Shown: positions 10,475 to 37,431, numbered from the stretch's first letter. The stretch: 64,000 nucleotides of DNA from an uncultured Bacilli bacterium (GCA_934133195.1 CAKPAZ010000002.1:13954-77953); one strand, 5' to 3'. The notes: a model not told the origin generated them from the letters alone. Translations and numbers: made by a program.

Positions 10475-10514
10475 TTTCATTCTCCTTTTTTAATCTTTAC
10501 ATTATATCGACTTA

Positions 10515-10543: not shown

Positions 10544-10550
10544 ATATTTT

Positions 10551-10580
10551 AGAAATAAAAGGGCTAATATCTTAGCCCTC
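10551..10580 (-). terminator. rho-independent terminator after the 979 aa GHL10 gene
   Basis: The minus strand reads GGGCTAA-GATA-TTAGCCC followed by TTTTATTTCT. Confidence 0.75.
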
Positions 10581-10587
10581 TAAATTA

Positions 10588-14210: not shown

Positions 14211-14226
14211 TGTATTTTCCCTTTCT

Positions 14227-16770: not shown

Positions 16771-16778
16771 TTTTACTA

Positions 16779-17810: not shown

Positions 17811-17889
17811 AAAGCACCTCATTTAATTATTTTTTCATTTACATTATACCATATTTCGATTTTTATTGCAATAAAAAAATGAAAATTTT

Positions 17890-19640: not shown

Positions 19641-20600
19641 TTATTTCAATAATGATTGTTTCCACTTAATCATCGGATGATTGTTAATTTTTTCATCAAT
19701 CATTTTATTTTCAAAAAGTTTTACTGAAATATTAGGAAAACTATTTATAAAATGAATTTCATTTTCAGTAATACTTTCTAAAATTTCATCTAATAGCATA
19801 CTAATATCATCTACAGCACCACAAATGTCAAACTTTTCATTTAGTTTTAACGTTGATGTTAAATATTGAGGGACTCTTTTTCCTATAAAAGAATTCATAC
19901 GTTTTTTACACTCTTCAAACAACGCTTTAATATCAATTTTTTCTTCAGAAGATAACAACAAATAAAAAATTAAACTTTTTTTGAATATAATAAATTCATT
20001 ACTATTTATTGTTTTATTTTTAATCATATTATATACATCATAAATGTCTCTAATAGTTGTTCTATATATTAAAGCATTAGTTTTTGATGCAAATAAATCA
20101 AATTTATTTAATGTTAAAACCTCTTCACTATTTTTTAAAGGTAATGTAATACTTCTTTTCCCGCAATCATATAAATGAATTCTATTCATATAATTGATTT
20201 CAATTTTTATCATATCTGTAGCATTAAACATATTTGAGTAATTGAAAACAAAAGAATCCAAAGCGTGAGTTTTCTTTGTTTTATCATTACGATATTGCAT
20301 ATTAGATTCTTGCATATAATTTAATAATTTTTTTTCAATTAAATCTCTATCTATCATCATTTTTTCTCTATCATTCGAACCAATATAATCTAAATCAATA
20401 TCAACACTTAGTCTCAAATAATTATAAAATGTTAAATTAATAGCAGTTCCACCTTTTAATGCTAGTTTATCCTTTAAATAAATGTCAGTATTAATAAATT
20501 CCAAAACATCAATTAGTCTTAATACTCTTTCCAATGTTTGTTTTTGAACATTTAATTCTTGTGCAGTAATAACAATTTCTTTTTTTGTATATGAAAACAT
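19641..20600 (-). CDS. AbiEii/AbiGii family nucleotidyltransferase toxin (DUF1814)
   Basis: 319 aa. LALKGGTAINLTF....LSVDIDLDY matches the GG[ST] and DxD nucleotidyltransferase motifs of AbiEii. It lies 3 nt downstream of the AbiEi-like gene. Confidence 0.75.
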   Translation of the reverse strand: MFSYTKKEIVITAQELNVQKQTLERVLRLIDVLEFINTDIYLKDKLALKGGTAINLTFYNYLRLSVDIDLDYIGSNDREKMMIDRDLIEKKLLNYMQESNMQYRNDKTKKTHALDSFVFNYSNMFNATDMIKIEINYMNRIHLYDCGKRSITLPLKNSEEVLTLNKFDLFASKTNALIYRTTIRDIYDVYNMIKNKTINSNEFIIFKKSLIFYLLLSSEEKIDIKALFEECKKRMNSFIGKRVPQYLTSTLKLNEKFDICGAVDDISMLLDEILESITENEIHFINSFPNISVKLFENKMIDEKINNHPMIKWKQSLLK

Positions 20601-20602
20601 TG

Positions 20603-21328
20603 CTATCCCTCCATATCCTTATAAACAAACAAACGCCATTTCGCATTAAATACTAATGAGTCTTTTGCTTGTAGATTGTAGTAACCAACTATATTTTCAC
20701 TTCTTTTTCTACATTCAGAAAAAAAATCATCGTGGATATTAAATACCTCTTTATATTTTTCTAAAACATACCCAACTTTTTTATACAGCAACTTGTTATT
20801 TAAACTTTCTAAATATTCCATTATTTTTAAATCATCGATTATATTAATATTATTTATACATTCTAATAACTCATAATATTCAAAATTTGCACTATCTTTG
20901 ATACAGTCAACAATCGCTCTTTCAATGCTACTAATTCTAATTCCAGAAAAATTATTTACTTGAATTAAATTACTGCTTCTATGATATTTATATAAATTAT
21001 CTTCAAAAACAAAATCACGTTTATAGGTATTTGTTGTGACATCAATAGTATTATAAACTTGATTATTTAATCCATAATATTCAAAAACACTATGATGGGA
21101 AATAAAATCATTACTACCATAACCACATGCTATTTCATATTTATTAGCAGCTGATATATTATTAACTAAATCATTAATTACAAAATAATCTTTTTTGATT
21201 TTTGTTATATACCCCTTATCTATATATGAACTTAATATATAGTTAGCATTATGAATACCTCCACAGATATTTATTACATCTTTTTTATTAAACAATTTTA
21301 AATTAGATAATTCTTTTAAATATTTCAT
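20603..21328 (-). CDS. AbiEi-like antitoxin / transcriptional regulator
   Basis: 241 aa. The size, the position immediately upstream of the AbiEii-like gene and an N-terminal wHTH-like segment fit AbiEi. My direct motif recognition is weaker here than for the toxin. Confidence 0.55.
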   Translation of the reverse strand: MKYLKELSNLKLFNKKDVINICGGIHNANYILSSYIDKGYITKIKKDYFVINDLVNNISAANKYEIACGYGSNDFISHHSVFEYYGLNNQVYNTIDVTTNTYKRDFVFEDNLYKYHRSSNLIQVNNFSGIRISSIERAIVDCIKDSANFEYYELLECINNINIIDDLKIMEYLESLNNKLLYKKVGYVLEKYKEVFNIHDDFFSECRKRSENIVGYYNLQAKDSLVFNAKWRLFVYKDMEG

Positions 21329-22064: not shown

Positions 22065-23879
22065 TTATTTTTTAATTGTAATTGCTGGTCTTACACCATA
22101 TTCTTTTGTTACGATTGAATATCTTTCAACAGTATTAGGTGTAAGTTGGAAGTTTTCTGTCATTCCTCTAACAATGCTTATACCATTTGCTTTTGAGAAT
22201 GGTGATCTCAACATCCAATCACAGTTAGCATAGTTAGCGTAAAGTGGAGACACCTTAATTCCTTTAGCACGTAAATACTCAGTCGCAATTCCTTTTCTGT
22301 TTTTATCATTAACATCAAATGATGAACTAAAGCCATATTTTGCGTTTGTTACATCAGCATAAGATAGTAAGAAAACAAAATCTTCTGTGTCATTAGATGC
22401 CATTGGATTACTTGATGCATATGTTGTTGAAGCAGAGTTGTCAACTTTAGTTTTTACTATTCTTTGTTGTTGAGCTTCACTAAAAGCATTTTTGTAGAAC
22501 ACTTGATTTAACCACTTTCTAATTTGTGAATTTTCATAGTTGTTATCTTCAGCTTCATTAAACTTATAAACATCTAAAACATATTCACTAAATAGAGTCA
22601 TTGTGTCATTATCTTCACTAATTACTCTCCATTTAATTGGATCAACATTGAAGTAATAATAGCTAACTTCTTTACTTGTTCCAATTGTCATAGTTGGAGT
22701 GTTTCTATAATAAGTAAGTCTATCAAATTGATAAATTGCATTAGCAGGATTAGGTTCTACTTTTACATACTTTTTACCATTATATTCAATTTCTTCAGTT
22801 TTAGCATCAGTTGAAAGAGCTTTTAATGCATTGATTGTTTCAGCGTCAGCAACTACACTTTGAACATAACTTCCGAAGTATATATATTTTTTGCCGTTTT
22901 CCACAAAAACTACACCATCTTCAGCTGGTAAGAATTTTGCATATAAAGTAATATCTTCAGTAGTTCCTTTAGTAATTGTTTCTACTTTATTTATATACTC
23001 AGGTTCACGATACCAACCATCAAAACGATATCCATATTTAGTTGGAACAGGAAGTGTCAATCCTTTTGAACTATTATATGTAGTAGCAGTTAATCTTTCA
23101 TTAAAGCCACCATCTAGTTCATAAGTAACATTATATGACCATTCTGCATAAAGCGTAATATCTTGATCAGTTCCTAATTTAATTTCTGTAATTAATGAAT
23201 CTTCGTTAAAATCAGGTGAAGTATACCAACCAGTAAATACCATATTTTCTTTAGTTGGAGTTGGTAGTTTTACATTATCTAAAATAGTAAATGAAGTAAC
23301 TAAGTCTTCGCATGTACCGCCATTTAATTCATAGGTAATTGTATGAGTTGGAGCTTTCCAAGTTGCTGTAAAGACCTTATTTCCAATTTCACCTTTTTCA
23401 ATTTTAGTAACTGTAGTTCCAGATGCATCTTTCCATCCTTCAAATGTGCATCCTTCTCTTGTTGGAGTTGGAAGGTCAACTTCTGTTTCTACTGTATAGC
23501 TTGTTGGTATTGTTATATTTGCACTAAAGTTTCCACCATTTAATTCAAAAGTAATTGTATAAAATATCGCAACCTTATTATATTTTGCTGTTACAGTAAT
23601 ATCATCTTGAATATTTTCTATGCTTGGTTCCCATCCAGCAAATACATATCTATAGCCTTTTCCTGGATTTTTACTAGATGTTAATTTTTTAATATCAGGT
23701 TGTGTTGCAGTTTTTCCAATAGCAGTTTTTACTTCTGCAATAACAGTTCCATCATCATTAACAAACTTAACAACTGGGCGTTTAATCTTTGTACTTACAA
23801 TAATAACAGCAAGTGCTAAGATAAATAGTACTGTACCTATAATTGTTTTTACAATCATTTTATTTTTACTTTCTTCCAT
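22065..23879 (-). CDS. membrane-anchored surface protein with Listeria-Bacteroides repeats and a C-terminal DUF6273-like domain
   Basis: An N-terminal TM anchor (IIGTVLFILALAVIIV) is followed by 4-5 repeats of the type Y.ITFELNGG......LPTPTREGCTFEGW. The C-terminal region has IKWRVIS..., IRKWLN, WMLRSP and GVRPAITI. Confidence 0.7.
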   Translation of the reverse strand: MEESKNKMIVKTIIGTVLFILALAVIIVSTKIKRPVVKFVNDDGTVIAEVKTAIGKTATQPDIKKLTSSKNPGKGYRYVFAGWEPSIENIQDDITVTAKYNKVAIFYTITFELNGGNFSANITIPTSYTVETEVDLPTPTREGCTFEGWKDASGTTVTKIEKGEIGNKVFTATWKAPTHTITYELNGGTCEDLVTSFTILDNVKLPTPTKENMVFTGWYTSPDFNEDSLITEIKLGTDQDITLYAEWSYNVTYELDGGFNERLTATTYNSSKGLTLPVPTKYGYRFDGWYREPEYINKVETITKGTTEDITLYAKFLPAEDGVVFVENGKKYIYFGSYVQSVVADAETINALKALSTDAKTEEIEYNGKKYVKVEPNPANAIYQFDRLTYYRNTPTMTIGTSKEVSYYYFNVDPIKWRVISEDNDTMTLFSEYVLDVYKFNEAEDNNYENSQIRKWLNQVFYKNAFSEAQQQRIVKTKVDNSASTTYASSNPMASNDTEDFVFLLSYADVTNAKYGFSSSFDVNDKNRKGIATEYLRAKGIKVSPLYANYANCDWMLRSPFSKANGISIVRGMTENFQLTPNTVERYSIVTKEYGVRPAITIKK

Positions 23880-24039: not shown

Positions 24040-24390
24040 TTAGTTACGACGTTCTTTGATTCTTGCAGATTTAGCTGATAAACCACGGATGTAGTTAAGT
24101 TTAGCACGACGTACACGACCAAGACGTACAACTTCAATTTTAGCAACCATTGGTGAATGAACAGGGAAAATTCTTTCAACTCCAACACCAGATGAAATCT
24201 TACGAACTGTGTAAGTTTCACTAATGCCACCACCATGACGGCCAATTACTAATCCTTCAAAAATTTGGATTCTTTCGCGGTCACCTTCTTTAATCTTTAC
24301 ATGTACTTTTACAGTGTCACCTGGACGGAATTCAGGAACATCGTTTCTCATGTAAGATTGAGTTACTGCTTTGATTAATTGTTGACTCAT
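24040..24390 (-). CDS. rplS: 50S ribosomal protein L19
   Basis: 116 aa. It reads ...[59 protein letters not shown].... Confidence 0.95.
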
Positions 24391-24469
24391 ATTATCTCTC
24401 CTTTATCTTCTGGTATTCATTCATATTCCATATCAACTTGGTTAATATCAGCGGAATACCATGTATTGC
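24391..24469 (-). promoter_or_regulatory. structured rplS 5' leader (L19-leader-like nested hairpin)
   Basis: On the minus strand an outer stem pairs GGUAUUC (complement of 24454-24460) with GAAUACC (complement of 24412-24418). It encloses an inner stem AUAUUAAC-CAA-GUUGAUAU. The 3' arm ends about 10 nt before the RBS GGAGAG. Confidence 0.4.
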
Positions 24470-24475
24470 TTTAAT

Positions 24476-24504
24476 ATTATATCACATCTTCTTGTTTTTT
24501 GCAA
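24476..24504 (-). promoter_or_regulatory. dedicated rplS promoter (-35 TTGCAA, 17 nt, -10 TATAAT)
   Basis: The minus strand reads TTGCAAaaaacaagaagatgtgaTATAAT. The -35 is at 24499-24504 and the -10 is the complement of 24476-24481. Confidence 0.65.
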
Positions 24505-24524
24505 GAAATATATCTTTTTATTTT

Positions 24525-24560
24525 TAAGAAGAAAGTGTCTCAAATTAATGAGACACTTTT
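24525..24560 (-). terminator. terminator hairpin after the 2517 aa gene
   Basis: The minus strand reads AAAGTGTCTCA-TTAATT-TGAGACACTTT followed by CTTCTT. The stem is a perfect 11 bp but the U-tract is interrupted. Confidence 0.6.
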
Positions 24561-24564
24561 GTTA

Positions 24565-27500
24565 TTAACGTGCATATACCTTATTGTTCCAAATTCTACT
24601 TGCAGGATAACTTCCATCCCATTGTTCCCAAGTAGTTGTACCAGGAATAACACTATATAGTTTGATTTCTCTTGTTTCACCATTTAGTTCAACTTTTAAT
24701 GTATAAGATACAGTTGTTGTTTTTTCTGGTGCATTGATTACTCTACCAGTGTTATCAATAATTTCAGGATTATGAGATACTAATGAAATCTTAGCATCTT
24801 TATAATTAGATCTTACTTCATATTGTAATTCAATCATTTCCATTAGACATGGCCAGAAGCTTCCTTCAATTACTGATTGAGGACAGTTTTTACCACACCA
24901 TGTATTATGTTGTTTAACTCTAGTTGGATCAAGGTTATTTCTAATTAAGATATCTGCAACAAGCATTGCAGTTCTTTGCCATGTATCATATACATCACCA
25001 GAAGTGTTAACGCACATTTCAATACCAATTGAATTACAGTTTCCACCAAATGCTGAAATGATTCCATAACCAGAATACCATAGTGGTCCTCCAATATAAT
25101 AATAGCCATCAACAACTTTCCATACAGGACCTAAATGACTGAACATTGCTTTTGTAGGTTCTTTTGTACCAGTTTTTGGAATAGCAACTGTAGTTGCTTC
25201 ACCATTTAAACTTAGGAAGTAATCTTCTCCTATTTTAACTATATCAAAGTCTGGTTTAACGTTTCCTGGAGCTTTTACAGTTGTCTTTATCCAGCTAAAT
25301 GTATTCTTAGTTCCGTCGGCCGCATGGTATGCAATGTATTTTTCAGGTACAACACCAAATATTGCATCATTACCTACTGTGTAGTGAATAGAAGTTTCAC
25401 CTGATGACATTACTTGAGCAATTGATTCAACAGTACCAGTAAGTGTTGCAGTATCATGGATAGTTACAAATTCAATTGTATCAACATCACGACGATCTTT
25501 ATGGTTATTTGGATTCTTTTCTGTAGTTTCATAATATGTTTCATTAACAACATATTCATCAAATAAGAATCTGTTTACACTTCCATATGTTGGAACAAAT
25601 ACTTTAGTTGTTCCATCATTATATAAGCTTACGTTACCACTTTGTACTGTTGAGAAATGACCATTTACTAATAATGATAATAATTTATCAATACTTGTTT
25701 CATTTCCTAATGATTTAACAGTAACACCAATTGTTAAGTTAGCTTCCATGCCAACAGTCTTAATTAATATTTCTGCATATCCATCTTTTAACGCTGTGAT
25801 TAAACCAGTTGCAGATACAGAAACAATTTCTGGATTTAATGATTCAAATACAAATGTTGCAGAAGCTGCATTCTTACCAAATGCTTTAACATTTAGTTGA
25901 AGTGTATCTTCTGGTTTAATTGTTCCATTATATACACCTTCAAAACTTGCATCAATTGAATCATGTGAATATACAGTTATTTCTCTTTCAACAACAACTA
26001 AGTTCATATAATCACGCATGATTATTTTAGCAGTACCAACATTGATGGCTTTTACTAATCCTGTTGAAGTTACTTGAAGAATATCAGTATTACTTGATTC
26101 AAAGTATACAGTTTTGAAATATGCATCACTAGGTTCGATTGAAGCAACAATTTGGAATTCTTCATTTGTAAGCATTTCATCTTTGAAAGCATCAATCTTA
26201 ATGCCAGTTGCTGGATTTAAAGCTTCCCACTTAGCTTTTAGTGTTGTATCGCCTTTAAGTTCAGTAATTGATGTGATAAGTTTATCATTTTCATACCAAC
26301 CTAAGAATTTATAACCAAGTAGTCCTGGTTTAATTAATTCATCATTAGTTCCTACTTTAACTGTGATTTGGTCACATTCAGGAAGTTCATCAAAGAAACA
26401 TACTTCTGTAGGATTTGCATTATTAATTGATTCAATAGCTCCACCAAATACTACATATTGGCCAACTTTAATTTTATTAGTTATTGGTTTAATATTTATA
26501 CCATATCCATTGTAGGAATTAGAAATAGTTATTACATATTCTGCACCTTCAGGCCATGATGATGCACCTGTTTGTAAGAAACTTACAACTTCATATAAGC
26601 CAGTTTCTTTATTCTTAGCAATATAAATACGGTCAGAGAAAGTAGCTTTTGGATCACATGATGCATCAGTAATGAAAATATCAGTTACATATTTACCACC
26701 AGTCCAGAATGAACCATCACTATTGTTATAGTTATTAATAGTTACAGCAATTGGGTTTTCTCCACGATTTTGGTAAAGGCCTTCATTTGAGTATCCACCA
26801 TTGTATATATATGTAATATTAAAATATTCAACTGCTTCCCAAATAGCATAAACTGTTACATCACCTGTTGTTGTTTTAGAAATTGCTGTAATAATTTGAC
26901 TTCCATCAGGAGTTAAGCTCCATCCAACAAAGCGATAATCTTCTTTTGTTGGAATTGGAAGAATATATTCTTTTCCTTCTAAATAACGAGTTGATGCAGA
27001 TACTTCACCACCATCTAATACATAGATGATTTTTGAGTAAATCTTAGTTTCACCAGATCCACCATCAACTTCTTCTTTTGATGGAACATCTTGAGCATTT
27101 TGATATGCATCAGCATATGTTGTAACATTTAGGAAATTCTTATCTAATAGAGTAGTTGTACCCCAGTAGTTTTTATCTGCGTTTACTACTACATCTGGGT
27201 TTACATTCTTAACAAATAAATCACCACTACAATTTTCACGGATATTGTAATTGATATTAATCATACAATTATCGCCGTTTAAAACTTTTGCTTCTTCAAA
27301 TCTAAATAGCATATAACCATTTGTAATTTTATTGAAACGATAGTTAATCTTTAGTTCATCATCTTTAGAACCTGAGTAAGTCTTGAATGTTACACCTGCA
27401 TGGTATTCAGCAAGACCAATGTTATTGTATTTGTTACTTTCAATTGTATAGTTACCATAACTATATCTTAAGAACCAAATAACATATTGTTGATATCCAT

Positions 27501-30500
27501 CAAATACGTTATCAGAAATATTGATTTCACCTTTAGTACCAAATGCACCGATATCATCAATTTTGATACCATCATTATATGTTTGATATGGACCATAGAA
27601 TTCATTATTAGTAATTGTTAGATTTTCAAATTCAGATCCATAAAGTATCATTTGACGACCAGTACCTTTGTTTATACGTGAGTATTTAATTACTACATTC
27701 TTATATGATACGCCAGTAGCAGGTACAAAGTAGAATGGAGCAGTTTTAGATCCAGCAACCTTAGAATTATCAAATAAAATATAATTAATTGTTAGATTTT
27801 CAATTGAAGTTGATTCAGATCCAACAATACGAGCTTCGCCTGTTAATGTAATACCATTAATTTCGACGTTACTTGCTTCAATTATTAAATCTGATGTAAA
27901 GATTGCTTCATTTTGTCTTGTATCCTTATTAGGATTAATATCTTTATTAGGGCCAATGATAGTTACGCTCTTAGCAATAGTACCACCAGCGTAAGTTCCT
28001 GATACAAATTCAATTGTATCACCATCAGTTGCTGCTGCAAGAGCTTCTTCTAGTGTTTTATATGTTTGGCCTTCGCCTACCATCAATGATGGTTTAATTT
28101 CTTTAAATATTGCATATAGAGTAATTTCTCCAGTTGCAGTTTCTGGAATAATTGTAATGTATTCATTACCATCTTTTGTTAATGACCAACCTAAGAACTT
28201 ATATCCATCTTTTGTTGCAGCAATTAATCTTGTTGCATAGCCTGGTAGATATTTAGTAGGAGCACCTTCAAGAAGGGTTCCACCATCAAGTTCATATTTA
28301 ATTGCACACATTTTTGTTTCTGCATATGCATCGTCTAATTCCATTGTTGATTTGAAATCATCTTTTGCAATTTCTGATGCTTTAATATTAGGTGTACCTT
28401 GATCAGTGTATGCAAGAGCAGAATAGTTCATACCAAAATAGAAGTTTTTAGCATTAACACAGAATCTCATTCTTGCAGAAGTATTTAAAATCTTATTATA
28501 CTTGATAGTTACATGTGGAGTTGAAGTAGTATCAGTAGTTGATTTACCTTGTACACTAAATACTGTGTCTTTACAATAGTTAAATGTGTTACCAATATAA
28601 TTAATTTCAATTGATTCATACTCAGCATGATGAACAGCCATTCCACATTCAGCATTAGCTGCACTATCACTATCAAAATTATTATCACGCATTGTGATTT
28701 TTGTATTTTCAGCAAGTTTATCTTGACCAACCCAGAAAGTCCAATAGTTTCCAGCAAAACGATATGCAATGTTATCATTCATATTAATAACACCTGCAGC
28801 GTTTCTTAGCCAGAATGCAAAGACATTTTGTGATGTTGGGCAATTGTTTGTAACATAGTTATGGTTAATTTCTGCACCTGTGATTAAGCCTTGGCTATAA
28901 ACACAAGAATAATAATTAACTGTAGATTTTAATGTAAATTTATTATATTCAACAACTAAATTGTTGATAGCACCAACGAAATGGATTTGACCAATTCCGG
29001 CAGCTGATGTTCCAGCTGATGCAGCTGTTCCTTCAATTACGTTATATTTAACAACGATAGTATCATTATCACCTTCACCATAAACTGAAGTTGTATTTGT
29101 TAATTTAAATCCTAGGATTTTAACATCTTTTACATTTTTAGATATTGTTATTTTTCCACTAATTATAGCTTCTAATGCTCGTTTATCACTTGTTCCCTCA
29201 ATTCCACTATTTGGACCAATTAATTGAATTCCATCATAAGCTATAACTAAATCTTCACTATAAGTTCCCGCTTTAACATATATTTTAGTATTTGCAGTTG
29301 CTGCAAGTAAAGCATCTTTAATTGTTTTATACTCTTCATTAGGGCCAACTACAATTTCATCAACAGCGACTACTTCTTCTTTCCATACTGCATAAACTGT
29401 TACATCACCTGTTTGTGCAGCAGATATTGATGTAATATATTCAGTACTATCTTTTTCAAGAGTCCAACCAAGGAATATATATCCTTCTTTAACAGGAGTT
29501 GCTAAAACTAATTCTTTACCTTCTTCATAAGTTGTAGGAACAACATATCCTTCTTCAAATTCTCCACCATCAAGTTCAAATGTGATTTTAGAATTTACTA
29601 CTGGAATTGTATATTCCCATTTTGCATAAAGTACTAAATTACCAGTCATACCCTTAGTTATTTTAGTAATTGCGATTGTACATTCTTTATCTAAGAACCA
29701 ACCTAAGAAATTAACATTAGCTGTTGCAGATGGTAAATCAAATTCATCTTCAACTGTATATTTTAGATTAGTTGTAGGAAGTTCAGCTTTAACTTCGGTA
29801 TTATCTTTTACAATGTATTTTGCAGGAAGTTCATTAAATGCTGCAATTGTTGTTCCTTTTACCCATTGATGGAAACGGAATAGAATTTGGATTTTACCAG
29901 CTGATGTTGGTGTATATGTGTTATCATATGCTGGGTAACCATTCTTAACAGCATTATAGAAATATTGATCCATTGCTTGATATTTTTCACGATATGCATT
30001 GCTATTTAAGAAATAACTTTCTGAATGTTCTATTACAGCTTTTCCTTCACTATCACGTTTAACTGGTTGATAAATGAAGTTAGATACTGTTTTTTCAAAA
30101 ACATAAATATCAATTGCTTTTAATTCTTCAGCATTACTAAATGAAGTTGTTTGACCATTCTTAGTTATAGTAACTTTACCATTTTGAACTTGAACATATG
30201 TTGAAATGTATTCAGCATTTGTTACAAACCAATTATATAAATCACTATAGAATTCATTTACAAATTCATCTTTGCTATTCCATTTTGTTTTAATTATTGT
30301 TGTTAAGTTTTTATCATATGTAATTGTGTATTCACAAATTTCATATAAAGCAGTTACTTCAAGGTCTTGTTTTACATTTACAATTGGCTTATCCCAACCA
30401 ATAAACTTATATCCAAGACGGGTTGGATCTTTTGGTGCTGCTGCAGCACGACCATCTTTAACTACAGTTTCTTTTAATACTTTTCCATCATAATCTTTAA

Positions 30501-32118
30501 ATACAACTTTATGAGTTATATTTGAATCAGGATTACTTGAAGATTCTGGTAAATTTAGTTTACTCATTAATTGCCAATCGCATGTTACATAGTCAACACC
30601 TTTATCAATCCATTCTTGAACTGTTGGATAGTCAACATATTGAGTAAATGTATATGTAGAAATCTTTAATCCTGCTTCTTTGTATTTAGCAAGCCATTCT
30701 TCACTGTTTGAATAACTAGCTGTTACATTGATACTTACATCTAAATCGTATTTTTTACATCTTTCTAAAATTGTATCGCTTTCACATGAGTTTACTAGAT
30801 ATTGACATTCAATATCAGAATAGCCATTTTCTCTTGTCCAGATTAAACAGTTATATTGTGAACCTAAGAAAATAGTATCTTCTCGCATTCCTGCTTTTTC
30901 AATTTCATCCATTAATGCTTGCATTCTTGATTGATCAGAGTTTGTGATACCTGCTGATGATTTAAGTTCAATTACAGCTTTTGCGTTATATTGACGACAA
31001 ATTTCTAGGTAACGTTCTAATGTACAAAGTTTTGTTGTATAACTATCTTTAGTTACACTTCCATTTTGAGCAGGGAAACCAGCCTTTCTACTCTTTGTTA
31101 CTTCAACATCTTTTAATACACTCCATGGTGTTGTTGAAATAGTATAATCGCCAAATGTTTCATCATGACTCATTACAAAAACGCCATCAGAAGTTTGTTT
31201 TAAGTCACACTCTAATGCTTGATACTTTAAGACTTGTACCGCATATAAGAATGCTTCTTCAGAATTCATTAAACCATAGTAACTACCAGCATGACCAATG
31301 AAAGTTACATCATAGTTCCATACAACCTCAATTGTACGCTTGAATTCAGCTTTATTACCAGCTTCATCTTCAACTCGATAAATTAGATCATAGAAACCAT
31401 ATGTTTGATTGTCAACTTCACCTTCTACTGTAATTTTAGAAGTTATGTCACCATCAACATTGTCAACAGCTTTAATACCATCAAGTGGATTAAATGGTTT
31501 GTTCCAATTTAAGAAGTTTTTATCTTTAATACCTTCTTCAAGAATAAATTCAGGTTTAATTACATCAACTTCTTTTTCAACAGCAATTGTTATTTCTGCT
31601 TTTAAGCCATCAACTTCAACACTAATGATTGCAGTTCCAGCACCTATTGCTTTAACAATGCCATCTTTTACAGTCGCAACGCTAGGGTCACTTGATGACC
31701 ATACACAAGTATCGTCAGCTAAGAAGATATCCTTAGGAAGTATCTCTAACTTAGTTGTTTCTCCCACTTTCAAATAAACGGAATCCGCACTTAGAGATAT
31801 CTCACGATTATCTTTGATTGTGAAGTGAACAGTTACTTTATTTCCTTTGACATATTTTACGCCAATTTCAACATCTGTTTCACCTTCTCTAAGAGCAGTT
31901 ACGATGCCTTTTTCTACGCGTGCGATAGATGGATCTAACACTTTATAAGAAAAGATTGGATCATCATCATTTACGACTTTTACATCTAGTTTGTAAGTTT
32001 CTCCAACTTCTAGAGAAACATCTTTATCCTCAATACTAAGTTCTGCCGATGTAGTTTGGCAGGCAATAATACCAAGGGTTAGTAGGAATGCTACTAATAA
32101 CAAAAATCCTTTTTTCAT
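24565..32118 (-). CDS. giant multidomain cell-surface lipoprotein: Big_2 / DUF5011-like Ig domains, GDPD phosphodiesterase, Listeria-Bacteroides repeats, right-handed beta-helix regions, C-terminal N-acetylmuramoyl-L-alanine amidase (Amidase_2)
   Basis: 2517 aa. The lipobox is LTLGIIAC. The GDPD motif FIGHAGSYYG..NSEEAF...ALECDLKQTSDGVFVMSHDETF lies at roughly nt 30560-31310. Several Y.I.YELDGG...GYKFLGW repeats are present, along with beta-helix style segments (IYVKAGTYSEDLVI.., VTIIGPNKDINPN..). The Amidase_2 motifs IEFVTIHDTA, IHYTV, YHAADG, NSIGIEMC and KQHNTWCGKNCP lie at roughly nt 24890-25500. Confidence 0.8.
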   Translation of the reverse strand: MKKGFLLLVAFLLTLGIIACQTTSAELSIEDKDVSLEVGETYKLDVKVVNDDDPIFSYKVLDPSIARVEKGIVTALREGETDVEIGVKYVKGNKVTVHFTIKDNREISLSADSVYLKVGETTKLEILPKDIFLADDTCVWSSSDPSVATVKDGIVKAIGAGTAIISVEVDGLKAEITIAVEKEVDVIKPEFILEEGIKDKNFLNWNKPFNPLDGIKAVDNVDGDITSKITVEGEVDNQTYGFYDLIYRVEDEAGNKAEFKRTIEVVWNYDVTFIGHAGSYYGLMNSEEAFLYAVQVLKYQALECDLKQTSDGVFVMSHDETFGDYTISTTPWSVLKDVEVTKSRKAGFPAQNGSVTKDSYTTKLCTLERYLEICRQYNAKAVIELKSSAGITNSDQSRMQALMDEIEKAGMREDTIFLGSQYNCLIWTRENGYSDIECQYLVNSCESDTILERCKKYDLDVSINVTASYSNSEEWLAKYKEAGLKISTYTFTQYVDYPTVQEWIDKGVDYVTCDWQLMSKLNLPESSSNPDSNITHKVVFKDYDGKVLKETVVKDGRAAAAPKDPTRLGYKFIGWDKPIVNVKQDLEVTALYEICEYTITYDKNLTTIIKTKWNSKDEFVNEFYSDLYNWFVTNAEYISTYVQVQNGKVTITKNGQTTSFSNAEELKAIDIYVFEKTVSNFIYQPVKRDSEGKAVIEHSESYFLNSNAYREKYQAMDQYFYNAVKNGYPAYDNTYTPTSAGKIQILFRFHQWVKGTTIAAFNELPAKYIVKDNTEVKAELPTTNLKYTVEDEFDLPSATANVNFLGWFLDKECTIAITKITKGMTGNLVLYAKWEYTIPVVNSKITFELDGGEFEEGYVVPTTYEEGKELVLATPVKEGYIFLGWTLEKDSTEYITSISAAQTGDVTVYAVWKEEVVAVDEIVVGPNEEYKTIKDALLAATANTKIYVKAGTYSEDLVIAYDGIQLIGPNSGIEGTSDKRALEAIISGKITISKNVKDVKILGFKLTNTTSVYGEGDNDTIVVKYNVIEGTAASAGTSAAGIGQIHFVGAINNLVVEYNKFTLKSTVNYYSCVYSQGLITGAEINHNYVTNNCPTSQNVFAFWLRNAAGVINMNDNIAYRFAGNYWTFWVGQDKLAENTKITMRDNNFDSDSAANAECGMAVHHAEYESIEINYIGNTFNYCKDTVFSVQGKSTTDTTSTPHVTIKYNKILNTSARMRFCVNAKNFYFGMNYSALAYTDQGTPNIKASEIAKDDFKSTMELDDAYAETKMCAIKYELDGGTLLEGAPTKYLPGYATRLIAATKDGYKFLGWSLTKDGNEYITIIPETATGEITLYAIFKEIKPSLMVGEGQTYKTLEEALAAATDGDTIEFVSGTYAGGTIAKSVTIIGPNKDINPNKDTRQNEAIFTSDLIIEASNVEINGITLTGEARIVGSESTSIENLTINYILFDNSKVAGSKTAPFYFVPATGVSYKNVVIKYSRINKGTGRQMILYGSEFENLTITNNEFYGPYQTYNDGIKIDDIGAFGTKGEINISDNVFDGYQQYVIWFLRYSYGNYTIESNKYNNIGLAEYHAGVTFKTYSGSKDDELKINYRFNKITNGYMLFRFEEAKVLNGDNCMININYNIRENCSGDLFVKNVNPDVVVNADKNYWGTTTLLDKNFLNVTTYADAYQNAQDVPSKEEVDGGSGETKIYSKIIYVLDGGEVSASTRYLEGKEYILPIPTKEDYRFVGWSLTPDGSQIITAISKTTTGDVTVYAIWEAVEYFNITYIYNGGYSNEGLYQNRGENPIAVTINNYNNSDGSFWTGGKYVTDIFITDASCDPKATFSDRIYIAKNKETGLYEVVSFLQTGASSWPEGAEYVITISNSYNGYGINIKPITNKIKVGQYVVFGGAIESINNANPTEVCFFDELPECDQITVKVGTNDELIKPGLLGYKFLGWYENDKLITSITELKGDTTLKAKWEALNPATGIKIDAFKDEMLTNEEFQIVASIEPSDAYFKTVYFESSNTDILQVTSTGLVKAINVGTAKIIMRDYMNLVVVEREITVYSHDSIDASFEGVYNGTIKPEDTLQLNVKAFGKNAASATFVFESLNPEIVSVSATGLITALKDGYAEILIKTVGMEANLTIGVTVKSLGNETSIDKLLSLLVNGHFSTVQSGNVSLYNDGTTKVFVPTYGSVNRFLFDEYVVNETYYETTEKNPNNHKDRRDVDTIEFVTIHDTATLTGTVESIAQVMSSGETSIHYTVGNDAIFGVVPEKYIAYHAADGTKNTFSWIKTTVKAPGNVKPDFDIVKIGEDYFLSLNGEATTVAIPKTGTKEPTKAMFSHLGPVWKVVDGYYYIGGPLWYSGYGIISAFGGNCNSIGIEMCVNTSGDVYDTWQRTAMLVADILIRNNLDPTRVKQHNTWCGKNCPQSVIEGSFWPCLMEMIELQYEVRSNYKDAKISLVSHNPEIIDNTGRVINAPEKTTTVSYTLKVELNGETREIKLYSVIPGTTTWEQWDGSYPASRIWNNKVYAR

Positions 32119-32141
32119 TACTTACCTCTTTCTCTATTTCA

Positions 32142-32178
32142 AATTTGTGAAAGCCTTTTCACAAATTAGATTATATCA
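32142..32178 (-). promoter_or_regulatory. extended -10 promoter (TGATATAAT) followed immediately by a perfect 11-bp palindrome (cre-like operator) in front of the giant gene
   Basis: AATTTGTGAAA (32142-32152), spacer gcct, TTTCACAAATT (32157-32167). The -10 is the complement of 32170-32178. The core TGAAAGCCTTTTCA differs from the cre consensus TGWAANCGNTNWCA at one central position. Confidence 0.5.
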
Positions 32179-32342
32179 TATTTGTTTTTTTAAATCCCTT
32201 TAAATGATTAAATTTTTCTTAAATTCTTTGGTTATTAATTTTATCAAATATAAAAATGGAGGTTTTTATCTTTAAATGTAAAAATGAATTATTTTTTTTT
32301 GATTTATGATATGATATATTAAAGATAAAAGGAGTGATATAT

Positions 32343-33200
32343 ATGCCTTTACATATTGGTGAAGTAAATAGATTTATTGTAAAAAGAGAAACCGATATCA
32401 GTTATACTCTTAGTCCTGATGATGATGAGTTAACTACCTATGTCTTTTTACATTTTAACCAAGCAACAAGAAAACTTGAACCAGGAGAAAAAATTAAAGC
32501 TTTTCTATACTATGATCAAAAGAAAAGACTATGTGCCACTATGGAAGAACCTTTAATTACTACTTCTAATTATGGTTTCGTAAAAGTAGTTAATGTATTA
32601 GAAAATGCAGGAGTATTTGTTAATATTAATATTGCTAAAGATATTTTATTGTCAAAAGACTTTTTACCTAGTTTCATAAAAGCATGGCCAAGAATTGATG
32701 AGGAAGTACCATGTATTTTAATTGAAAAGCAACATCAGTTAGTCGCAAGAATTATTACTCCTAGTGATATTAAGGTTCTACCTTCCAAACTTAAAGTTGA
32801 CCAAACAATAAGTGGAAATGTATCAAAGATTACTCCATCGGGAATTACTGTTTGTACAAGAGAATATCAGTTTGTTTTTATTCATAAGAACTATCTTCGT
32901 AAAAACTATCATTTAGGCGAGGAGGTTACTTGCAAAGTAATTCATATTAATGAACATGGTGAGTATTATGCATCAACGATTGAAAGAAAAGAATATTCAA
33001 GACTTAGTGATAGTGATACTATCTATAACTATTTAAAACAAATGGGAGGAATTATACCACTTGGTAATGCTTCTTCTCCTGAGGATATTAGTAAATTTTT
33101 TAAGATGAGTAAGAGTGCCTTTAAAAGAGCTGTTGGAGCACTTTACAAGAAACGCTTAATCAACATTGAAGATTACAAAATTACTTTAATAGAAAAATAA
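32343..33200 (+). CDS. cvfB: S1 RNA-binding domain protein, CvfB / YitL family
   Basis: 286 aa. Repeated S1-like modules are followed by a C-terminal winged-helix-like tail (MSKSAFKRAVGALYKKRLI). The start is the ATG 8 nt after AAAGGAG. Confidence 0.65.
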   Translation: MPLHIGEVNRFIVKRETDISYTLSPDDDELTTYVFLHFNQATRKLEPGEKIKAFLYYDQKKRLCATMEEPLITTSNYGFVKVVNVLENAGVFVNINIAKDILLSKDFLPSFIKAWPRIDEEVPCILIEKQHQLVARIITPSDIKVLPSKLKVDQTISGNVSKITPSGITVCTREYQFVFIHKNYLRKNYHLGEEVTCKVIHINEHGEYYASTIERKEYSRLSDSDTIYNYLKQMGGIIPLGNASSPEDISKFFKMSKSAFKRAVGALYKKRLINIEDYKITLIEK

Positions 33201-33201
33201 T

Positions 33202-33233
33202 GCCGGATAAATTATCCGACATTTTTTCTTTTT
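33202..33233. terminator. weak hairpin plus T-run between convergent cvfB and the M6 protease gene
   Basis: CGGAT-AAATT-ATCCG followed by ACATTTTTTCTTTTT on the plus strand. The stem is short. Confidence 0.4.
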
Positions 33234-36207
33234 ATTTGAATGAAATGTTAATTACAGCTTCATTATTATTGATTGATACAACTTCTAAAATGAATCCAGC
33301 ATCACTACCATCATACCATTTAGCTGTTGACCAAACATCTTTTGCTTGGAATAAATCACTATTAGATGATGTACCACCATATATATCATCGCCTTCAATA
33401 TCATTATTACCATCAGCTTCTACTAAAGAGATTAAACGATGATCAGTGCTACTATTGTTATATTTATAAACATCCCAAATTGATACACCTTTTGTTGGAT
33501 CGTTAGGGGTTGCGTCAATATGGTAAATACGTATACCGCTCTTTGAGAATAAGCCACTATAGCCTGCTTCCATTTGGTTTAGTCCATCTGGAGTATAGAA
33601 ATCAATAATGAAATATTCTGTAAATAATGAGTTTTTAAAGTTTTTAGCAATAATCAAACAGTCACCTGTAGAACCAAATGATCTAAGGGTTACGGTTGCA
33701 TCATCATCACCCATTACAAGTGGGTCTACCCATCCAAGGATTGCTTTAGAGAATGGATTATGATCACCAACATTATAGTCCATCATATCTCCACCACCAA
33801 GGCCACCAGCAGGACCTTTTGAAGCATCTGTGTCATAGTAATCATCTAATCCTAGTAAATGACCAGTTTCATGAATGAATGTTTCTAGATTATACTTTAT
33901 TGATTTTCCTGATGAAGGAACTTCGCTTAAGAAATCATAACCAGCAAGTAGATAGAAGTCTGCTTCAACATTATCATATTTTTCAATATCATCTGTGAAG
34001 TATTCATAAGTATATGCCCACCACATACTGTTGTCATCAGTTCTGTTTATTTCACAAGTATATACAAGATATATAGAGTCAATATATCCATCTTTATCAC
34101 TATCATATTCAGAATAATCAATGTCTTTGTCATAATACTTTAGAGCTGCTTGAATTATTTCATAATCACCATTGTCTTTTGCATCATAATATGAGGCTTT
34201 TTTACCTGTTTGGAAAACTGGTAATACAGTACCTTCAATGTTTAATTTTCCATAAGAACTCTTTTGATAGTAACTGCTTAAGCTTTCCCATCCTGTTGTT
34301 GATGCATCACCAAAGAATGCTCTTTCAAGATTATTTACCATATCACTTGGAGCAGGATAATCTGTGAATGATACCGGAATAACTAATACTTTAGGATTAC
34401 CAATTGAAGGAAGACCACGAGTAACACCATAAACTTCACCAGTTGTTTCATCTTTTCCCATATCTTTAATGATATCTTCAAGACGAGTAGTGTCCTTTGA
34501 AATTGGTGTTGGTTTACTTGAACCTGTAGTTACTACAATAACAAATACTGTAGTTAAATCATTATATGTAACTTCAATTTCATATTCTCCTTCAGTTGTT
34601 TTATAATCAACTGAATTTAATGTATACTCATCACTAGAAAGAACTCTAGATGTTCCATCAACATCATTGAATGTTACTACTAAAGATTTTATTGCATCTT
34701 CAAATGAAGTATTTTCTTTTACACGGATACGTGCAGGTGCAGCAACAAGTGTTGCTTCTAATGTACCAAGAGTTATAATCGTATTCGCTGTTACCGCAAC
34801 TTGTGGTTTGTTAAAATAGCTAATAACTGCACTAGTTACGTTGATAACATCACCAACACTTAATGAAGCAAGTAAATTATAAGTTTCATCATCTAATGCA
34901 TTATTTAAATACTTAGAAATAAATAATGTTGTTGTATTAGTACCATCAGAAATTGTAAAACTATTATCTGAAGATGAAACAAATGATTGAGGGACTGCTG
35001 TAACCACAAAGTTTTGGAAACTAACATTCATGCCTACATATAAATCTAATTCTTCTTTTGTTAGTGTTTCAAGATCTATTGTGTAAAGATCATCATCACC
35101 AATTATTTCAATACTTGATATTGATTTAATTTCAACAAGACCTTTATATGTTTCTTTAACACCTGTTACAGTAACAACAGTGCCTATTGTAAGGTCATTT
35201 AAAGCATCATTGCTCTTTCCACAATATATATATATTCCACCAGTTTCATCTTGAATATAGAAGTTGTTACCAACTATACCAGATACTGAACCAGTAACAG
35301 TTACACTTTCGCCTTCTTCTGCAGCTTTTGCTTCAGCGATAGTTGTTCCTGTCTCAAGTGGAGTAGCATTTGGTAAAGTAAATTCAACTTTATTATGATT
35401 TGAGAAACTTACTTCATATGTTACATCTTGAGTTGATGATGCGACAGTTACAAATATTTTATATAGTTTATTTTCAAATAATTCAATTGCTAAATTAGTA
35501 TATTCTTCATCCATAGTGCAGAATAAATCATTAGCAATTTCTGATGTTTGTTCAAAATCTTTTAGAATGTATTGACCATTTTTAAACATAAATTTAGAAG
35601 TATCAATACTTGATAAATCAATCAAATCGAAGTAAGCAATATATGAACTAAAGAATTGATTGTTTTCATCAACACTATAATATGTTCCATCTTCATATAA
35701 GCCATAGTAATAATAAACATCTTCAACGTATGCTAAATACTCATAGCCAATTGATGAATCTTCATATTGAATCATAGCTTTATAACTATTATTGTAGAAT
35801 TCATAGCTATAAGAAGCACGAGTAAGTCCATCAATAACATATGAAACATTATAAGCAAAACTATTTAAATTATTAAGGGCTTTATCTAATTCTTCAACTG
35901 AAGGTGTTGGTACATCATTTTTGATTTTCGCATATAAAGTGATATCACCAGTTTGATCTTTTTCAATTTGAACCACAGGTTCTCCTTCAAATGTTTCACT
36001 TAAATACCATCCTTCAAAATTATCATTATCAAGTGGTGTAAGTTTTGTAACCTTTCCTTCTTCATAACTTGATGGTGCATGTTCAATTATTTCACCACCT
36101 ACATAATAAGTTATATTATATTTAGTACTTGTTCCTGTTAATTGACATGAAGTAATTAATACTAAAGATAATATTAAAAATAATAAATTAAATATTCTTT
36201 TTTTCAT
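33232..36207 (-). CDS. secreted lipoprotein with a C-terminal M6 (immune inhibitor A-like) metalloprotease domain
   Basis: The lipobox is LVLITSC. One Listeria-Bacteroides repeat is present. Two OB-fold-like barrels follow (GESVTVTGSVSGIVGNNFYIQDETGGIYIY..), then an Ig-like domain. The zinc motif is FIHETGHLLGLDDYYD. The start is taken at MKKRIF (36207). Confidence 0.7.
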   Translation of the reverse strand: MKKRIFNLLFLILSLVLITSCQLTGTSTKYNITYYVGGEIIEHAPSSYEEGKVTKLTPLDNDNFEGWYLSETFEGEPVVQIEKDQTGDITLYAKIKNDVPTPSVEELDKALNNLNSFAYNVSYVIDGLTRASYSYEFYNNSYKAMIQYEDSSIGYEYLAYVEDVYYYYGLYEDGTYYSVDENNQFFSSYIAYFDLIDLSSIDTSKFMFKNGQYILKDFEQTSEIANDLFCTMDEEYTNLAIELFENKLYKIFVTVASSTQDVTYEVSFSNHNKVEFTLPNATPLETGTTIAEAKAAEEGESVTVTGSVSGIVGNNFYIQDETGGIYIYCGKSNDALNDLTIGTVVTVTGVKETYKGLVEIKSISSIEIIGDDDLYTIDLETLTKEELDLYVGMNVSFQNFVVTAVPQSFVSSSDNSFTISDGTNTTTLFISKYLNNALDDETYNLLASLSVGDVINVTSAVISYFNKPQVAVTANTIITLGTLEATLVAAPARIRVKENTSFEDAIKSLVVTFNDVDGTSRVLSSDEYTLNSVDYKTTEGEYEIEVTYNDLTTVFVIVVTTGSSKPTPISKDTTRLEDIIKDMGKDETTGEVYGVTRGLPSIGNPKVLVIPVSFTDYPAPSDMVNNLERAFFGDASTTGWESLSSYYQKSSYGKLNIEGTVLPVFQTGKKASYYDAKDNGDYEIIQAALKYYDKDIDYSEYDSDKDGYIDSIYLVYTCEINRTDDNSMWWAYTYEYFTDDIEKYDNVEADFYLLAGYDFLSEVPSSGKSIKYNLETFIHETGHLLGLDDYYDTDASKGPAGGLGGGDMMDYNVGDHNPFSKAILGWVDPLVMGDDDATVTLRSFGSTGDCLIIAKNFKNSLFTEYFIIDFYTPDGLNQMEAGYSGLFSKSGIRIYHIDATPNDPTKGVSIWDVYKYNNSSTDHRLISLVEADGNNDIEGDDIYGGTSSNSDLFQAKDVWSTAKWYDGSDAGFILEVVSINNNEAVINISFK

Positions 36208-36218
36208 GTTTTTCCTTT

Positions 36219-36719
36219 CTAACAGCCACAATCTTCAATTCCTGTTACAATGGGAATTAAATCATGGTTATATTCATTTAATATTTTATATCCTTCTGCG
36301 TAAATATGAATATTTTTATATCCACTTGATTTTAGTTTTACTGCTTCTGATAGCACATTTGTACCATTTTGATCTATCAAAAATATTGTTGTTTTCTTGT
36401 CAACATTTTGACGGACCCAACTTTGAAAAGCAGTACTACATCTTTGTAAATAAGTAGCTTCATCTTCTGTACTTTTTCTTTTTAAATTATAGTTGTAACT
36501 TATAAATCCTTTTAAGTGCCCAGAAGCATAACCTGTTTGTAAATCTCTTAAATCGATTGCGATAAAATCTTGTTTTTCATCACTCAAATATTCATAATAT
36601 GCATTCAAATAATCAACAGCTTCTTCATTATGGTATATATATGTTTTTTTACATCCTGTAATTGATAATATATATATCAATACTAAAACTAGACAGCTAA
36701 TCTTCTTTACATATTTCAT
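36219..36719 (-). CDS. rhodanese-like domain lipoprotein
   Basis: The lipobox is LSITGC. The segment FIAIDLRDLQTGYASGHLKGFISYNY is rhodanese-like. The C-terminus ends in CGC. The gene overlaps the trmD 3' end. Confidence 0.55.
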   Translation of the reverse strand: MKYVKKISCLVLVLIYILSITGCKKTYIYHNEEAVDYLNAYYEYLSDEKQDFIAIDLRDLQTGYASGHLKGFISYNYNLKRKSTEDEATYLQRCSTAFQSWVRQNVDKKTTIFLIDQNGTNVLSEAVKLKSSGYKNIHIYAEGYKILNEYNHDLIPIVTGIEDCGC

Positions 36720-37431
36720 TTTTAATTTCCTCAATCATAGCTAAATCTTCTGGAGTTAATGTAGCTTTTTCTAATAAATCAGGTCTTACAAGTAAAGTTT
36801 TTTTGAGGGCCTCATAGCGTTGCCATTTTTTTATTTTCGCATGATGTCCAGAAAGTAGGATTTCCGGAACACTATGACCATCGTATTCTTGTGGTCTTGT
36901 ATATTGAGGATATTCTAATAAATCATCATTGAATGATTCTGTACTTATTGAATCCTCACTTATTACACCTGGGATTAAGCGACTTACAGAGTCGACAATC
37001 GCAAGGGCAGGTACTTCACCACCTGTTAAGACATAATCACCAATTGATATTTCTTCATCAACATAGTTAAGAACTCTAGCATCTATGCCTTCATAATGTC
37101 CACATATAATTATTAGATGTTCTTTTTTTGAAAGTTCTAGGGCCTTCTTTTGATTAAATTGATTACCGCTTGGTGAAGTTAAAATTACATATGCTTTCTC
37201 ATAATCCTTAATATGAGTAAGAGCACGATGAATGGGGTCAACACGAATTAACATTCCAGCTCCACCACTATATGAATAATCATCAACAGTGTTGTGTTTA
37301 TTACCTGAATATTCACGAAAATCAATGGTGTTACACTCAATTAAGTTATTGTTAATAGCTCTTTTTAAAATTGAACTATTGAAATAATTTGTAAACATTT
37401 CGGGAAATAAAGTTAGGATATCAAACTTCAT
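36697..37431 (-). CDS. trmD: tRNA (guanine37-N1)-methyltransferase
   Basis: MKFDILTLFPEMF... and GHYEGIDARV... are present, along with SIGDYVLTGGE. Confidence 0.95.
   Translation of the reverse strand: MKFDILTLFPEMFTNYFNSSILKRAINNNLIECNTIDFREYSGNKHNTVDDYSYSGGAGMLIRVDPIHRALTHIKDYEKAYVILTSPSGNQFNQKKALELSKKEHLIIICGHYEGIDARVLNYVDEEISIGDYVLTGGEVPALAIVDSVSRLIPGVISEDSISTESFNDDLLEYPQYTRPQEYDGHSVPEILLSGHHAKIKKWQRYEALKKTLLVRPDLLEKATLTPEDLAMIEEIKNEICKED

Follow-up and report, generated by a model that had tools for sequence, protein, structure and literature searches.

A giant modular surface lipoprotein built from two uncharacterised enzyme subfamilies in an uncultured gut Bacilli bacterium

Several described enzymes share a part of their make-up with the protein considered here: a 2,517-residue modular surface lipoprotein (hereafter the giant protein) encoded at 24565..32118, on the minus strand, of a 64,000-nucleotide stretch of DNA from an uncultured Bacilli bacterium (GCA_934133195.1, CAKPAZ010000002.1:13954-77953), the whole of which we call the window. 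Staphylococcal Atl – a modular, bifunctional and processed autolysin that unites an Amidase_3-type domain, a glucosaminidase and GW wall-binding repeats – is like the giant protein in its modularity and in having more than one catalytic domain, while AmiD of E. coli, small and single-domain, is like it in being a lipid-anchored Amidase_2; unlike the giant protein, neither has a glycerophosphodiester phosphodiesterase (GDPD) domain or beta-helices. At the level of single domains the closest systems are amidases of the XlyA/PlyL/CwlA type (3hmb, 3rdr, 1yb0, 2l47) and the canonical GDPDs (3no3, 3i10, 2oog, 2pz0, and B. subtilis GlpQ, 5t91). The former are catalytic domains of ~160 amino acids (aa), taken from lysins of prophages or phages that also have a wall-binding domain; they belong by sequence to the same fold family as the amidase of the giant protein and share five aligned residues with it, but the amidase of the giant protein is split by an insert of ~85 aa and sits at the tip of a 2,517-aa lipoprotein. 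The canonical GDPDs share with our protein the Pfam family, the His pair and the metal triad. They keep an HRG motif, however, as do the GDPDs of Enterococcus phage vB_EfaS_IME197, whereas the clade of the giant protein is Arg-less, and is further set apart by a PF16403 domain before the enzyme and, usually, a Flg_new repeat with an insert, X, for which there is no PDB fold match, after it. The GHL10 hydrolases (Cwp19 of C. difficile, and DigH of E. coli, which we take to be a member of the family) and muropeptide-recycling sets are candidate downstream partners encoded by separate genes. Closest in logic are the phage tail lysins, in which GDPD/pectinesterase-like enzymes and peptidoglycan hydrolases reach the Gram-positive surface from outside (PMC10194240); there the activities usually lie on separate proteins, whereas here they are found in one cellular lipoprotein with a chromosomal housekeeping context.

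By its architecture the giant protein belongs with the modular cell-wall hydrolases of the cell surface, and the two enzyme subfamilies that it combines are both uncharacterised. Its gene is a single uninterrupted open reading frame (ORF) that starts with ATG and is preceded by a Shine-Dalgarno sequence, AAGAGG, and a -10-like element, TATGATATAAT. Full-length homologues exist at 94% (locus L001), 65% (L002) and 63% (L003/L004) identity. Codon comparison with the L001 homologue gives a ratio of nonsynonymous to synonymous substitution (dN/dS) of 0.09 for the whole ORF; by domain the values are 0.04 for the GDPD, 0.03 for the second beta-helix module and 0.18 for the amidase, which is the fastest-evolving domain (85% identity to L001, against 97–98% for the GDPD and the second beta-helix module). 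This is clearly a real gene under strong purifying selection and not a chance ORF.

The GDPD-type domain (aa 273-515; 30574..31302, on the minus strand like every feature of the giant gene given below) was delimited by Pfam, by profile alignments to GDPDs in the PDB and by alignment to phage GDPDs. Its Pfam match, like the other Pfam domains assigned to the giant protein, lies above the gathering score (aa 279-510, 35.6-41.6 bits against a cut-off of 23.6), and its best PDB matches are solved GDPDs. The motifs FIGHAG, ECD and SHDETF can be read in the protein, and profile alignment to solved and phage GDPDs finds H276, E303, D305, H318, E384 and K386 conserved, among them both catalytic histidines (H276, H318) and the metal triad E303/D305/E384. 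A survey of enterococcal phages lists five residues as required in GDPDs (PMC10194240), and all five are kept here; H276, H318, E303, D305 and E384 do not vary in the family alignment, nor among the 150 best library hits that extend over these positions. The Arg of the HRG motif, however, is lost, its place being taken by Ala277, and the motif reads HAG.

The loss is not peculiar to this protein. When 1.84 billion representative proteins were searched exhaustively, 120 GDPD matches came out at E <= 1e-30, and the top tier, comprising ~65 clusters, reads H-[A/G/Q/M/T/S/C]-G nearly throughout, with one HRG exception; the next tier of relatives has canonical HRG, which the phage enzymes also keep. 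In GTDB genomes the motif could be read at 44 of the 47 GDPD loci, 45 times in all, with Ala in 34 cases, Gly in six, Gln in four and Arg in one. Since the absence of Arg is clade-wide and the domain is under strong constraint, the sequences speak for a modified enzyme and against a dead or decayed copy. One candidate for a compensating residue, Lys307, two residues past the metal-binding Asp, was rejected as a clade-specific stand-in for the Arg, for a Lys or Arg stands at the same place in the canonical, HRG-bearing relatives. In related loci the PF16403 domain always precedes the GDPD, and Flg_new plus X usually follows it. The nearest phage relatives, at 25–29% identity over the full domain, are tail-module GDPDs of an Enterococcus phage, whose presumed target is teichoic acid (PMC10194240).

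At the other end of the protein lies the Amidase_2 domain (PF01510; aa 2214-2414; 24877..25479), placed by Pfam (53.7-60 bits against a cut-off of 26), by alignment to XlyA and PlyL and by the family alignment. Its motifs read IHDTA, HYTV, YHA, NSIGIE and HNTWCGKNCP. H2221, E2367, H2404, K2410 and C2412 align with the corresponding positions of XlyA (3hmb, 3rdr) and of PlyL-type enzymes (1yb0, 2l47); from what these positions do in XlyA and PlyL, we take H2221, H2404 and C2412 to be zinc ligands and E2367 and K2410 to be catalytic. All five are invariant in seven family members. Set against the expectation that no catalytic residue be missing, the amidase stands in full and the GDPD, for want of the Arg, in part. 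The amidase core is not the contiguous domain of ~130-160 aa that might be expected, but is split by the ~85-aa insert (aa ~2270-2356; 25051-25311), which lies between the YHA and GGNxNSIGIE motifs and is conserved in every family member aligned. Homologues recovered with the amidase region are mostly fragments from short contigs. A phage origin of the insert-bearing form was considered and rejected: matches among GenBank and IMG/VR phages extend over the C-terminal half of the core only, and the insert was not seen in them. Following the amidase, and conserved together with it in the family alignment, is a C-terminal domain of ~100 aa (24568..24876) that has no Pfam match.

Between the membrane and these enzymes the protein is made up of recognisable surface modules. 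The N-terminus, MKKGFLLLVAFLLTLGIIAC, fits a lipoprotein signal peptide, with the lipobox LGIIA|C and Cys20 read directly from the sequence (32059..32118). Eleven of the 12 homologues whose N-termini were read likewise carry a lipobox Cys; the remaining one, P0005, begins without a signal peptide. These observations support a lipid-anchored, multi-domain polypeptide. There follow two Big_2 immunoglobulin (Ig)-like domains (PF02368; aa 28-95 and ~110-181; 31576..32037) and a Bact_surface_Ig-like domain (PF16403; aa 207-265; 31324..31500; 61 bits), after which comes the GDPD. Six Flg_new repeats, recognised by Pfam and by their GW motif, space the remainder: repeat 1 (aa 536-592; 30343..30513); repeat 2 (29617..30333), split by X (aa ~610-785, ~175 aa), which is conserved beside the GDPD; repeat 3 (aa 844-911; 29386..29589); repeat 4 (aa 1273-1337; 28108..28302); repeat 5 (aa 1697-1763; 26830..27030); and repeat 6 (26230..26823), split by a second insert, Y (aa ~1780-1920, ~140 aa), and matching the InlB B-repeat through its Flg_new part alone. 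Two further Big_2 domains (aa ~1966-2137, with Pfam bounds of 1973-2033 and 2066-2135; 25708..26223) stand before the amidase. X and Y are without recognised relatives: their profiles matched PDB sequences through the Flg_new parts only, and the AlphaFold2 model of the X-bearing repeat, with a predicted local distance difference test score (pLDDT) of 75.8, gave no PDB fold match at E <= 0.001. None of the wall-binding modules typical of autolysins (LysM, SH3b, SPOR, CWB, SLH) was found in the Pfam scan of the giant protein.

Much of this architecture had been anticipated by a reading of the DNA made before any database was searched (the original prediction). The ORF of 2517 aa, the lipobox, the two N-terminal Big_2-like domains and the multiple Listeria-Bacteroides repeats (the six Flg_new) are all as then described; the Ig domain called DUF5011-like proves to be PF16403; and for the GDPD and the amidase both the motifs and the nucleotide ranges were right, the latter to within ~30 nt. 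Where it counted three C-terminal Big_2-like domains, Pfam finds two, and the inserts X and Y and that of the amidase are additions to its list. It also knew of no characterised example of the domain combination, and we found no literature on such an architecture, which appears to be both uncharacterised and rare.

The original prediction further described two extended regions of beta-helix character. Pfam gave no significant beta-helix match for either: sub-threshold matches to DUF1565 and Pectinesterase fall at the N-terminal cap only and, these cap matches aside, PF13229, PF12708 and similar profiles were not matched at E <= 1. The proposal was instead upheld by structure and homology. Module 1 (aa 918-1272; 28303..29367) was modelled by AlphaFold2 with a pLDDT of 82.5 and a predicted template modelling (pTM) score of 0.85, and all Foldseek matches of the model in the PDB at E <= 0.001 are right-handed parallel beta-helix proteins, which, at the level of a predicted structure, confirms the fold class. 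Among these proteins are the AlgE4 epimerase, PL6 lyases, the RbmB lyase, rhamnogalacturonan lyase and phage tail fibres and tailspikes; pectin methylesterases and the adhesin PfbA follow at E 1e-3 to 4e-3, and matches in BFVD (E <= 0.001) either carry names of the beta-helix or pectate-lyase type or are uncharacterised viral proteins. Module 2 (aa 1340-1695; 27034..28101) is a paralogue of module 1 (27% identity, BLASTP E 7e-11) and was assigned to the fold by this homology. Because the structural matches are weak (E ~1e-4, TM 0.2-0.45) and generic, no specific enzyme family can be assigned to the modules. In an alignment of eleven beta-helix module sequences (the query and its homologues) the invariant residues are those of the N-terminal cap and structural positions only, which is mild evidence against a conserved catalytic site. 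A profile search of a 5.8-billion-protein set with this alignment yielded only two proteins, both annotated PF13229, and no greater depth.

Comparison with related loci reveals how the giant protein came to be assembled: it is a fusion of two cassettes, each common in its lineage. One is a phosphodiesterase unit, Ig–GDPD followed usually by Flg_new and X; the other is an amidase unit, Flg_new/Y–Big_2–Big_2–amidase–C-terminal domain, variably preceded by beta-helix modules. The amidase cassette occurs at no fewer than 77 loci of GTDB species representatives, often in multiple copies or in tandem: two or three amidase-cassette genes stand in tandem or nearby at L049, L053, L061, L065, L071, L077 and L103, and the metagenome-assembled genome (MAG) closest to the window carries a second copy, 38% identical, on another contig (L077). 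The GDPD cassette is without any amidase at 43 of its 47 genome loci; the full fusion of GDPD, beta-helix and amidase is found at two, and a GDPD–X–amidase arrangement at two more. The full fusion is rare, occurring in a few species only. The 65%-identical homologue (L002) occupies the same slot as the giant gene, between cvfB and rplS, and the 63%-identical homologue lies elsewhere, adjoining polC. A Spo0A-type regulator gene ~9 kb upstream of the latter (413-1210 of L003/L004) hints that this relative retains sporulation genes.

An observation that bears on substrate concerns MAGs labelled Acholeplasma or Acholeplasmatales, several of which carry the amidase or the GDPD cassette (L071, L074, L075, L095, L103, L115, L210, L233). 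Acholeplasmatales are regarded as an order without peptidoglycan; if the labels are true, this would speak for a substrate foreign to the cell.

Hadza gut samples are the source of the genome closest to the window, a MAG of an uncultured Bacilli bacterium. RNase J of the window shares 78% identity with its counterpart in UMGS75 and 61-62% with those in UBA1427 and UMGS1109, three genomes that are placed in GTDB order ML615J-28, family CAG-313 (supplement of PMC10868615). By this marker the host probably belongs to the same order and family. For this group a thin, Erysipelotrichales-like peptidoglycan wall has been predicted (Field et al. 2024, PMC10868615), together with a meso-diaminopimelate (m-DAP) pathway that has missing steps, such that muropeptides would need to be scavenged; sortases and standard wall- or lipoteichoic-acid synthesis are predicted to be lacking in the group, as are most lyt/cwl hydrolases in the family (PMC10868615). 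On this prediction, any substrate of the teichoic-acid type would be foreign to the cell. The window itself encodes a divergent MurC-like Mur ligase (17890-19152, minus strand; 281 bits against an NCBIfam MurC cut-off of 335), and the gene of a LacI-family regulator (16779-17822) adjoins it.

A putative peptidoglycan or amino-sugar salvage cluster occupies 469-15303 of the window (minus strand). It encodes a 1,127-aa secreted protein resembling substrate-binding proteins, a GH20 enzyme, three GHL10 proteins (those of 835 aa and 979 aa with signal peptides), a PIG-L deacetylase, an M19 dipeptidase and a protein of beta-lactamase fold that resembles PBP4B and AmpH; the GHL10, GH20, M19 and beta-lactamase-fold genes span 3856-15303. 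Cwp19, a GHL10 enzyme, cleaves the glycan of peptidoglycan (PMC6016235), and DigH acts on glycan that has been denuded of peptides (PMC12288456). The original prediction had the giant protein supplying peptide-free glycan to these GHL10 enzymes. In support of a link, one metagenomic contig (L043) carries a beta-helix–amidase paralogue, P0017, inside the same gene set: around it lie M19, beta-lactamase-fold, S66 LD-carboxypeptidase-type, GHL10 and GH20 genes, together with an ATP-binding cassette (ABC) transporter binding protein and ABC permeases; identities to the window genes at 469-15303 are 39-55%. In the window itself the GHL10 cluster is 9-24 kb from the giant gene, with unrelated genes between, and a general adjacency of the amidase cassette to GHL10 or GH20 genes was rejected on the evidence of the other genome loci, considered below.

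A central question is what the giant protein does. Reading outward from the membrane, the polypeptide would present three Ig-like domains and then the metal-dependent GDPD-type phosphodiesterase; beyond this would come the Flg_new spacers (two of them with X and Y), the two pectate-lyase-fold beta-helices and two Big_2 domains, with the zinc-dependent Amidase_2 N-acetylmuramoyl-L-alanine amidase at the far tip. Some 2,200 residues and many rigid modules would separate the amidase from the lipid anchor, hence it should lie far outside a thin wall. So placed, the protein may act outside the cell, on the Gram-positive walls of neighbours or on shed debris: the amidase would remove stem peptides from N-acetylmuramic acid (MurNAc), the phosphodiesterase would cleave phosphodiester polymers or head groups of the glycerol-phosphate type, and the beta-helices, with the Ig-like and Flg_new modules, would give reach and bind – possibly cut – the accompanying glycans. 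Peptides, denuded glycan and glycerol phosphate would thereby be freed, and a host with a small genome and a peptidoglycan pathway predicted to be incomplete could take them up and salvage them. That the giant protein is such an extracellular wall-degrading or salvage enzyme for Gram-positive wall material is the reading that we favour, tentatively and at a little less than an even chance. We favour it because the amidase is distal on a very long anchored protein that has no autolysin-type wall-binding modules, because the host's own teichoic acid is predicted to be absent while muropeptides are predicted to be needed, and because the cassettes have been expanded and shuffled, one of them within the salvage-type locus L043. 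Several points weigh against it. The Arg-less active site may mean that the substrate of the GDPD, or even its activity, differs from those of known GDPDs; no catalytic constellation is conserved in the beta-helices, whose structural matches are generic (TM <= 0.45); neither GHL10 nor GH20 lies within 10 kb of the amidase at any of 76 other genome loci, which leaves the association anecdotal, known from the one metagenomic locus; the placement in CAG-313 rests on one marker protein and on predictions made in the literature at family level; and the host is predicted to be walled, so that action on the self wall is possible. A bolder version, in which ML615J-28 bacteria, unable to make all of their own peptidoglycan precursors, use the two lineage-specific cassettes as a harvesting apparatus – stripping the walls of neighbours and building their own thin wall from the pieces, on which they would depend obligately – strikes us as unlikely.

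The predicted wall of the host invites another explanation: the giant protein could be an autolysin that serves growth or division of the producer's own thin wall, its lipid anchor replacing the missing sortase and wall-binding anchoring. A walled family predicted to lack sortases and most lyt/cwl hydrolases needs some hydrolase, the closest solved relatives of the amidase are Amidase_2 autolysins such as XlyA and CwlA, and the gene sits among housekeeping genes in an arrangement that is syntenic in the 65%-identical relative. Yet this would place the amidase of an autolysin at the distal end of ~2,500 residues with no wall-targeting module in the Pfam scan, and would leave the GDPD without a self substrate if teichoic-acid synthesis is indeed absent; multicopy or tandem expansion and variable domain shuffling are unusual in a division enzyme, and one paralogue sits in a catabolic or salvage cluster (L043). 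We consider an autolysin somewhat unlikely for these reasons, yet a rival to be taken seriously. Surface GlpQ (protein D) of Haemophilus hydrolyses glycerophosphodiesters or lipid head groups, and a scavenger or adhesin directed at host or diet – with soluble glycerophosphodiesters or head groups, mucin or plant glycans, or muropeptides of the lumen as its target – would accommodate both an Arg-less site, suggestive of a non-canonical substrate, and the 43 loci at which the GDPD cassette lacks an amidase and must function independently of peptidoglycan cleavage. The beta-helix matches to PfbA and to enzymes of plant polysaccharides would fit as well, as would the neighbouring genes for other secreted, hydrolase-like Flg_new proteins, one of them nuclease-like and M6 protease-like. 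Such a role nevertheless sits poorly with fusion to a peptidoglycan amidase under purifying selection in four or more sequence clusters and with nearest phage GDPD relatives that are tail-module enzymes; moreover, CAZy domains specific for mucin or plant glycans were not detected in the Pfam scan. We regard it as distinctly improbable. Even less credence attaches to a contact-dependent antibacterial weapon, selected for killing neighbours by lysis rather than for nutrition. The logic is that of virion-associated phage lysins, which pair teichoic-acid with peptidoglycan hydrolases, the paralogues are multicopy and the amidase is the domain that evolves fastest, but no immunity gene or toxin-delivery system is evident beside the giant gene, and an amidase by itself is a slow lytic agent on thick walls; killing is in any case inseparable from foraging by sequence alone.

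The original prediction had imagined a surface-tethered polypeptide that strips teichoic acid, a secondary polymer and peptides from a Gram-positive wall, serving as an autolysin or as a weapon or foraging enzyme. The tethering and the conserved enzyme residues stand. Teichoic acid as the substrate is an inference, catalysis by the beta-helices is unsupported, and the choice between autolysin and weapon or forager is undecided by sequence, with the context leaning toward external wall material.

Around the giant gene the usual rimM–trmD–rplS order is interrupted (24040-37931): ~12 kb encoding three surface or secreted proteins and CvfB intervene between trmD and rplS. The giant gene, which lies between these two genes, is accompanied by genes for two further secreted proteins with Flg_new repeats. 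The first encodes a lipoprotein of 999 aa (33232-36231, minus strand) that has a Flg_new repeat, an ExeM/NucH-like oligonucleotide/oligosaccharide-binding (OB)-fold region and a candidate M6 metalloprotease domain just short of its cut-off (109.7 against 110.8 bits); L002 has it at the same place, upstream of the homologue. The second, just downstream of rplS (22065-23879, minus strand) and likewise present in L002, encodes a membrane-anchored protein of 604 aa in which DUF6273 is combined with three Flg_new repeats. At 19641-21328 (minus strand) there is an AbiEii-type nucleotidyltransferase toxin gene with an unassigned upstream 241-aa partner in a stretch of ~23% G+C; this pair is split or decayed in L002.

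Upstream of the giant gene lies a promoter-like site found by consensus scan (32175..32204: TTTAAA, 18 nt, TATGAT, with an overlapping TATAAT), a putative promoter whose -10 is conserved in L001 and L002. Between this -10 and the ribosome-binding site is an inverted repeat with 14-nt arms (32139..32170), whose core, TGAAAAGGCTTTCA, resembles a catabolite-responsive element (cre) and is conserved in both L001 and the 65%-identical L002; the repeat may serve as an operator or as a hairpin of the 5′ untranslated region. An operator common to the giant gene and to the GHL10 cluster or its LacI-family regulator was rejected, as the repeat occurs once only within the window and cre-consensus matches there are at chance level, including that of the repeat by itself. 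Directly after the stop codon is a perfect 11-bp hairpin (24532..24559), a putative terminator with a weak T-run only, and beyond it a promoter-like site for rplS (24476-24504). An Rfam scan of the window found no structured RNAs, and none upstream of tyrS (15316-16778), be it a T-box or another Rfam family. The beta-lactamase-fold gene of the salvage cluster starts 12 nt past the end of tyrS, a spacing that suggests co-transcription of the two.

The wider significance of the giant protein lies in its parts: an Arg-less GDPD clade (~65 clusters, always Ig–GDPD and usually with X) and an insert-bearing Amidase_2 clade, both uncharacterised. The uncultured orders ML615J-28, RF39 and RFN20 are frequent inhabitants of the guts of animals and humans, and a genome survey predicts that many of their members need to scavenge muropeptides (PMC10868615). 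The machinery for doing so has not yet been pointed out for these orders, and the giant protein, along with the two widespread cassettes from which it is built, provides concrete candidates. Should these enzymes prove able to attack foreign walls, they would merit attention as lytic agents, and the cross-feeding dependencies that possibly block cultivation of these bacteria would be explained in part.

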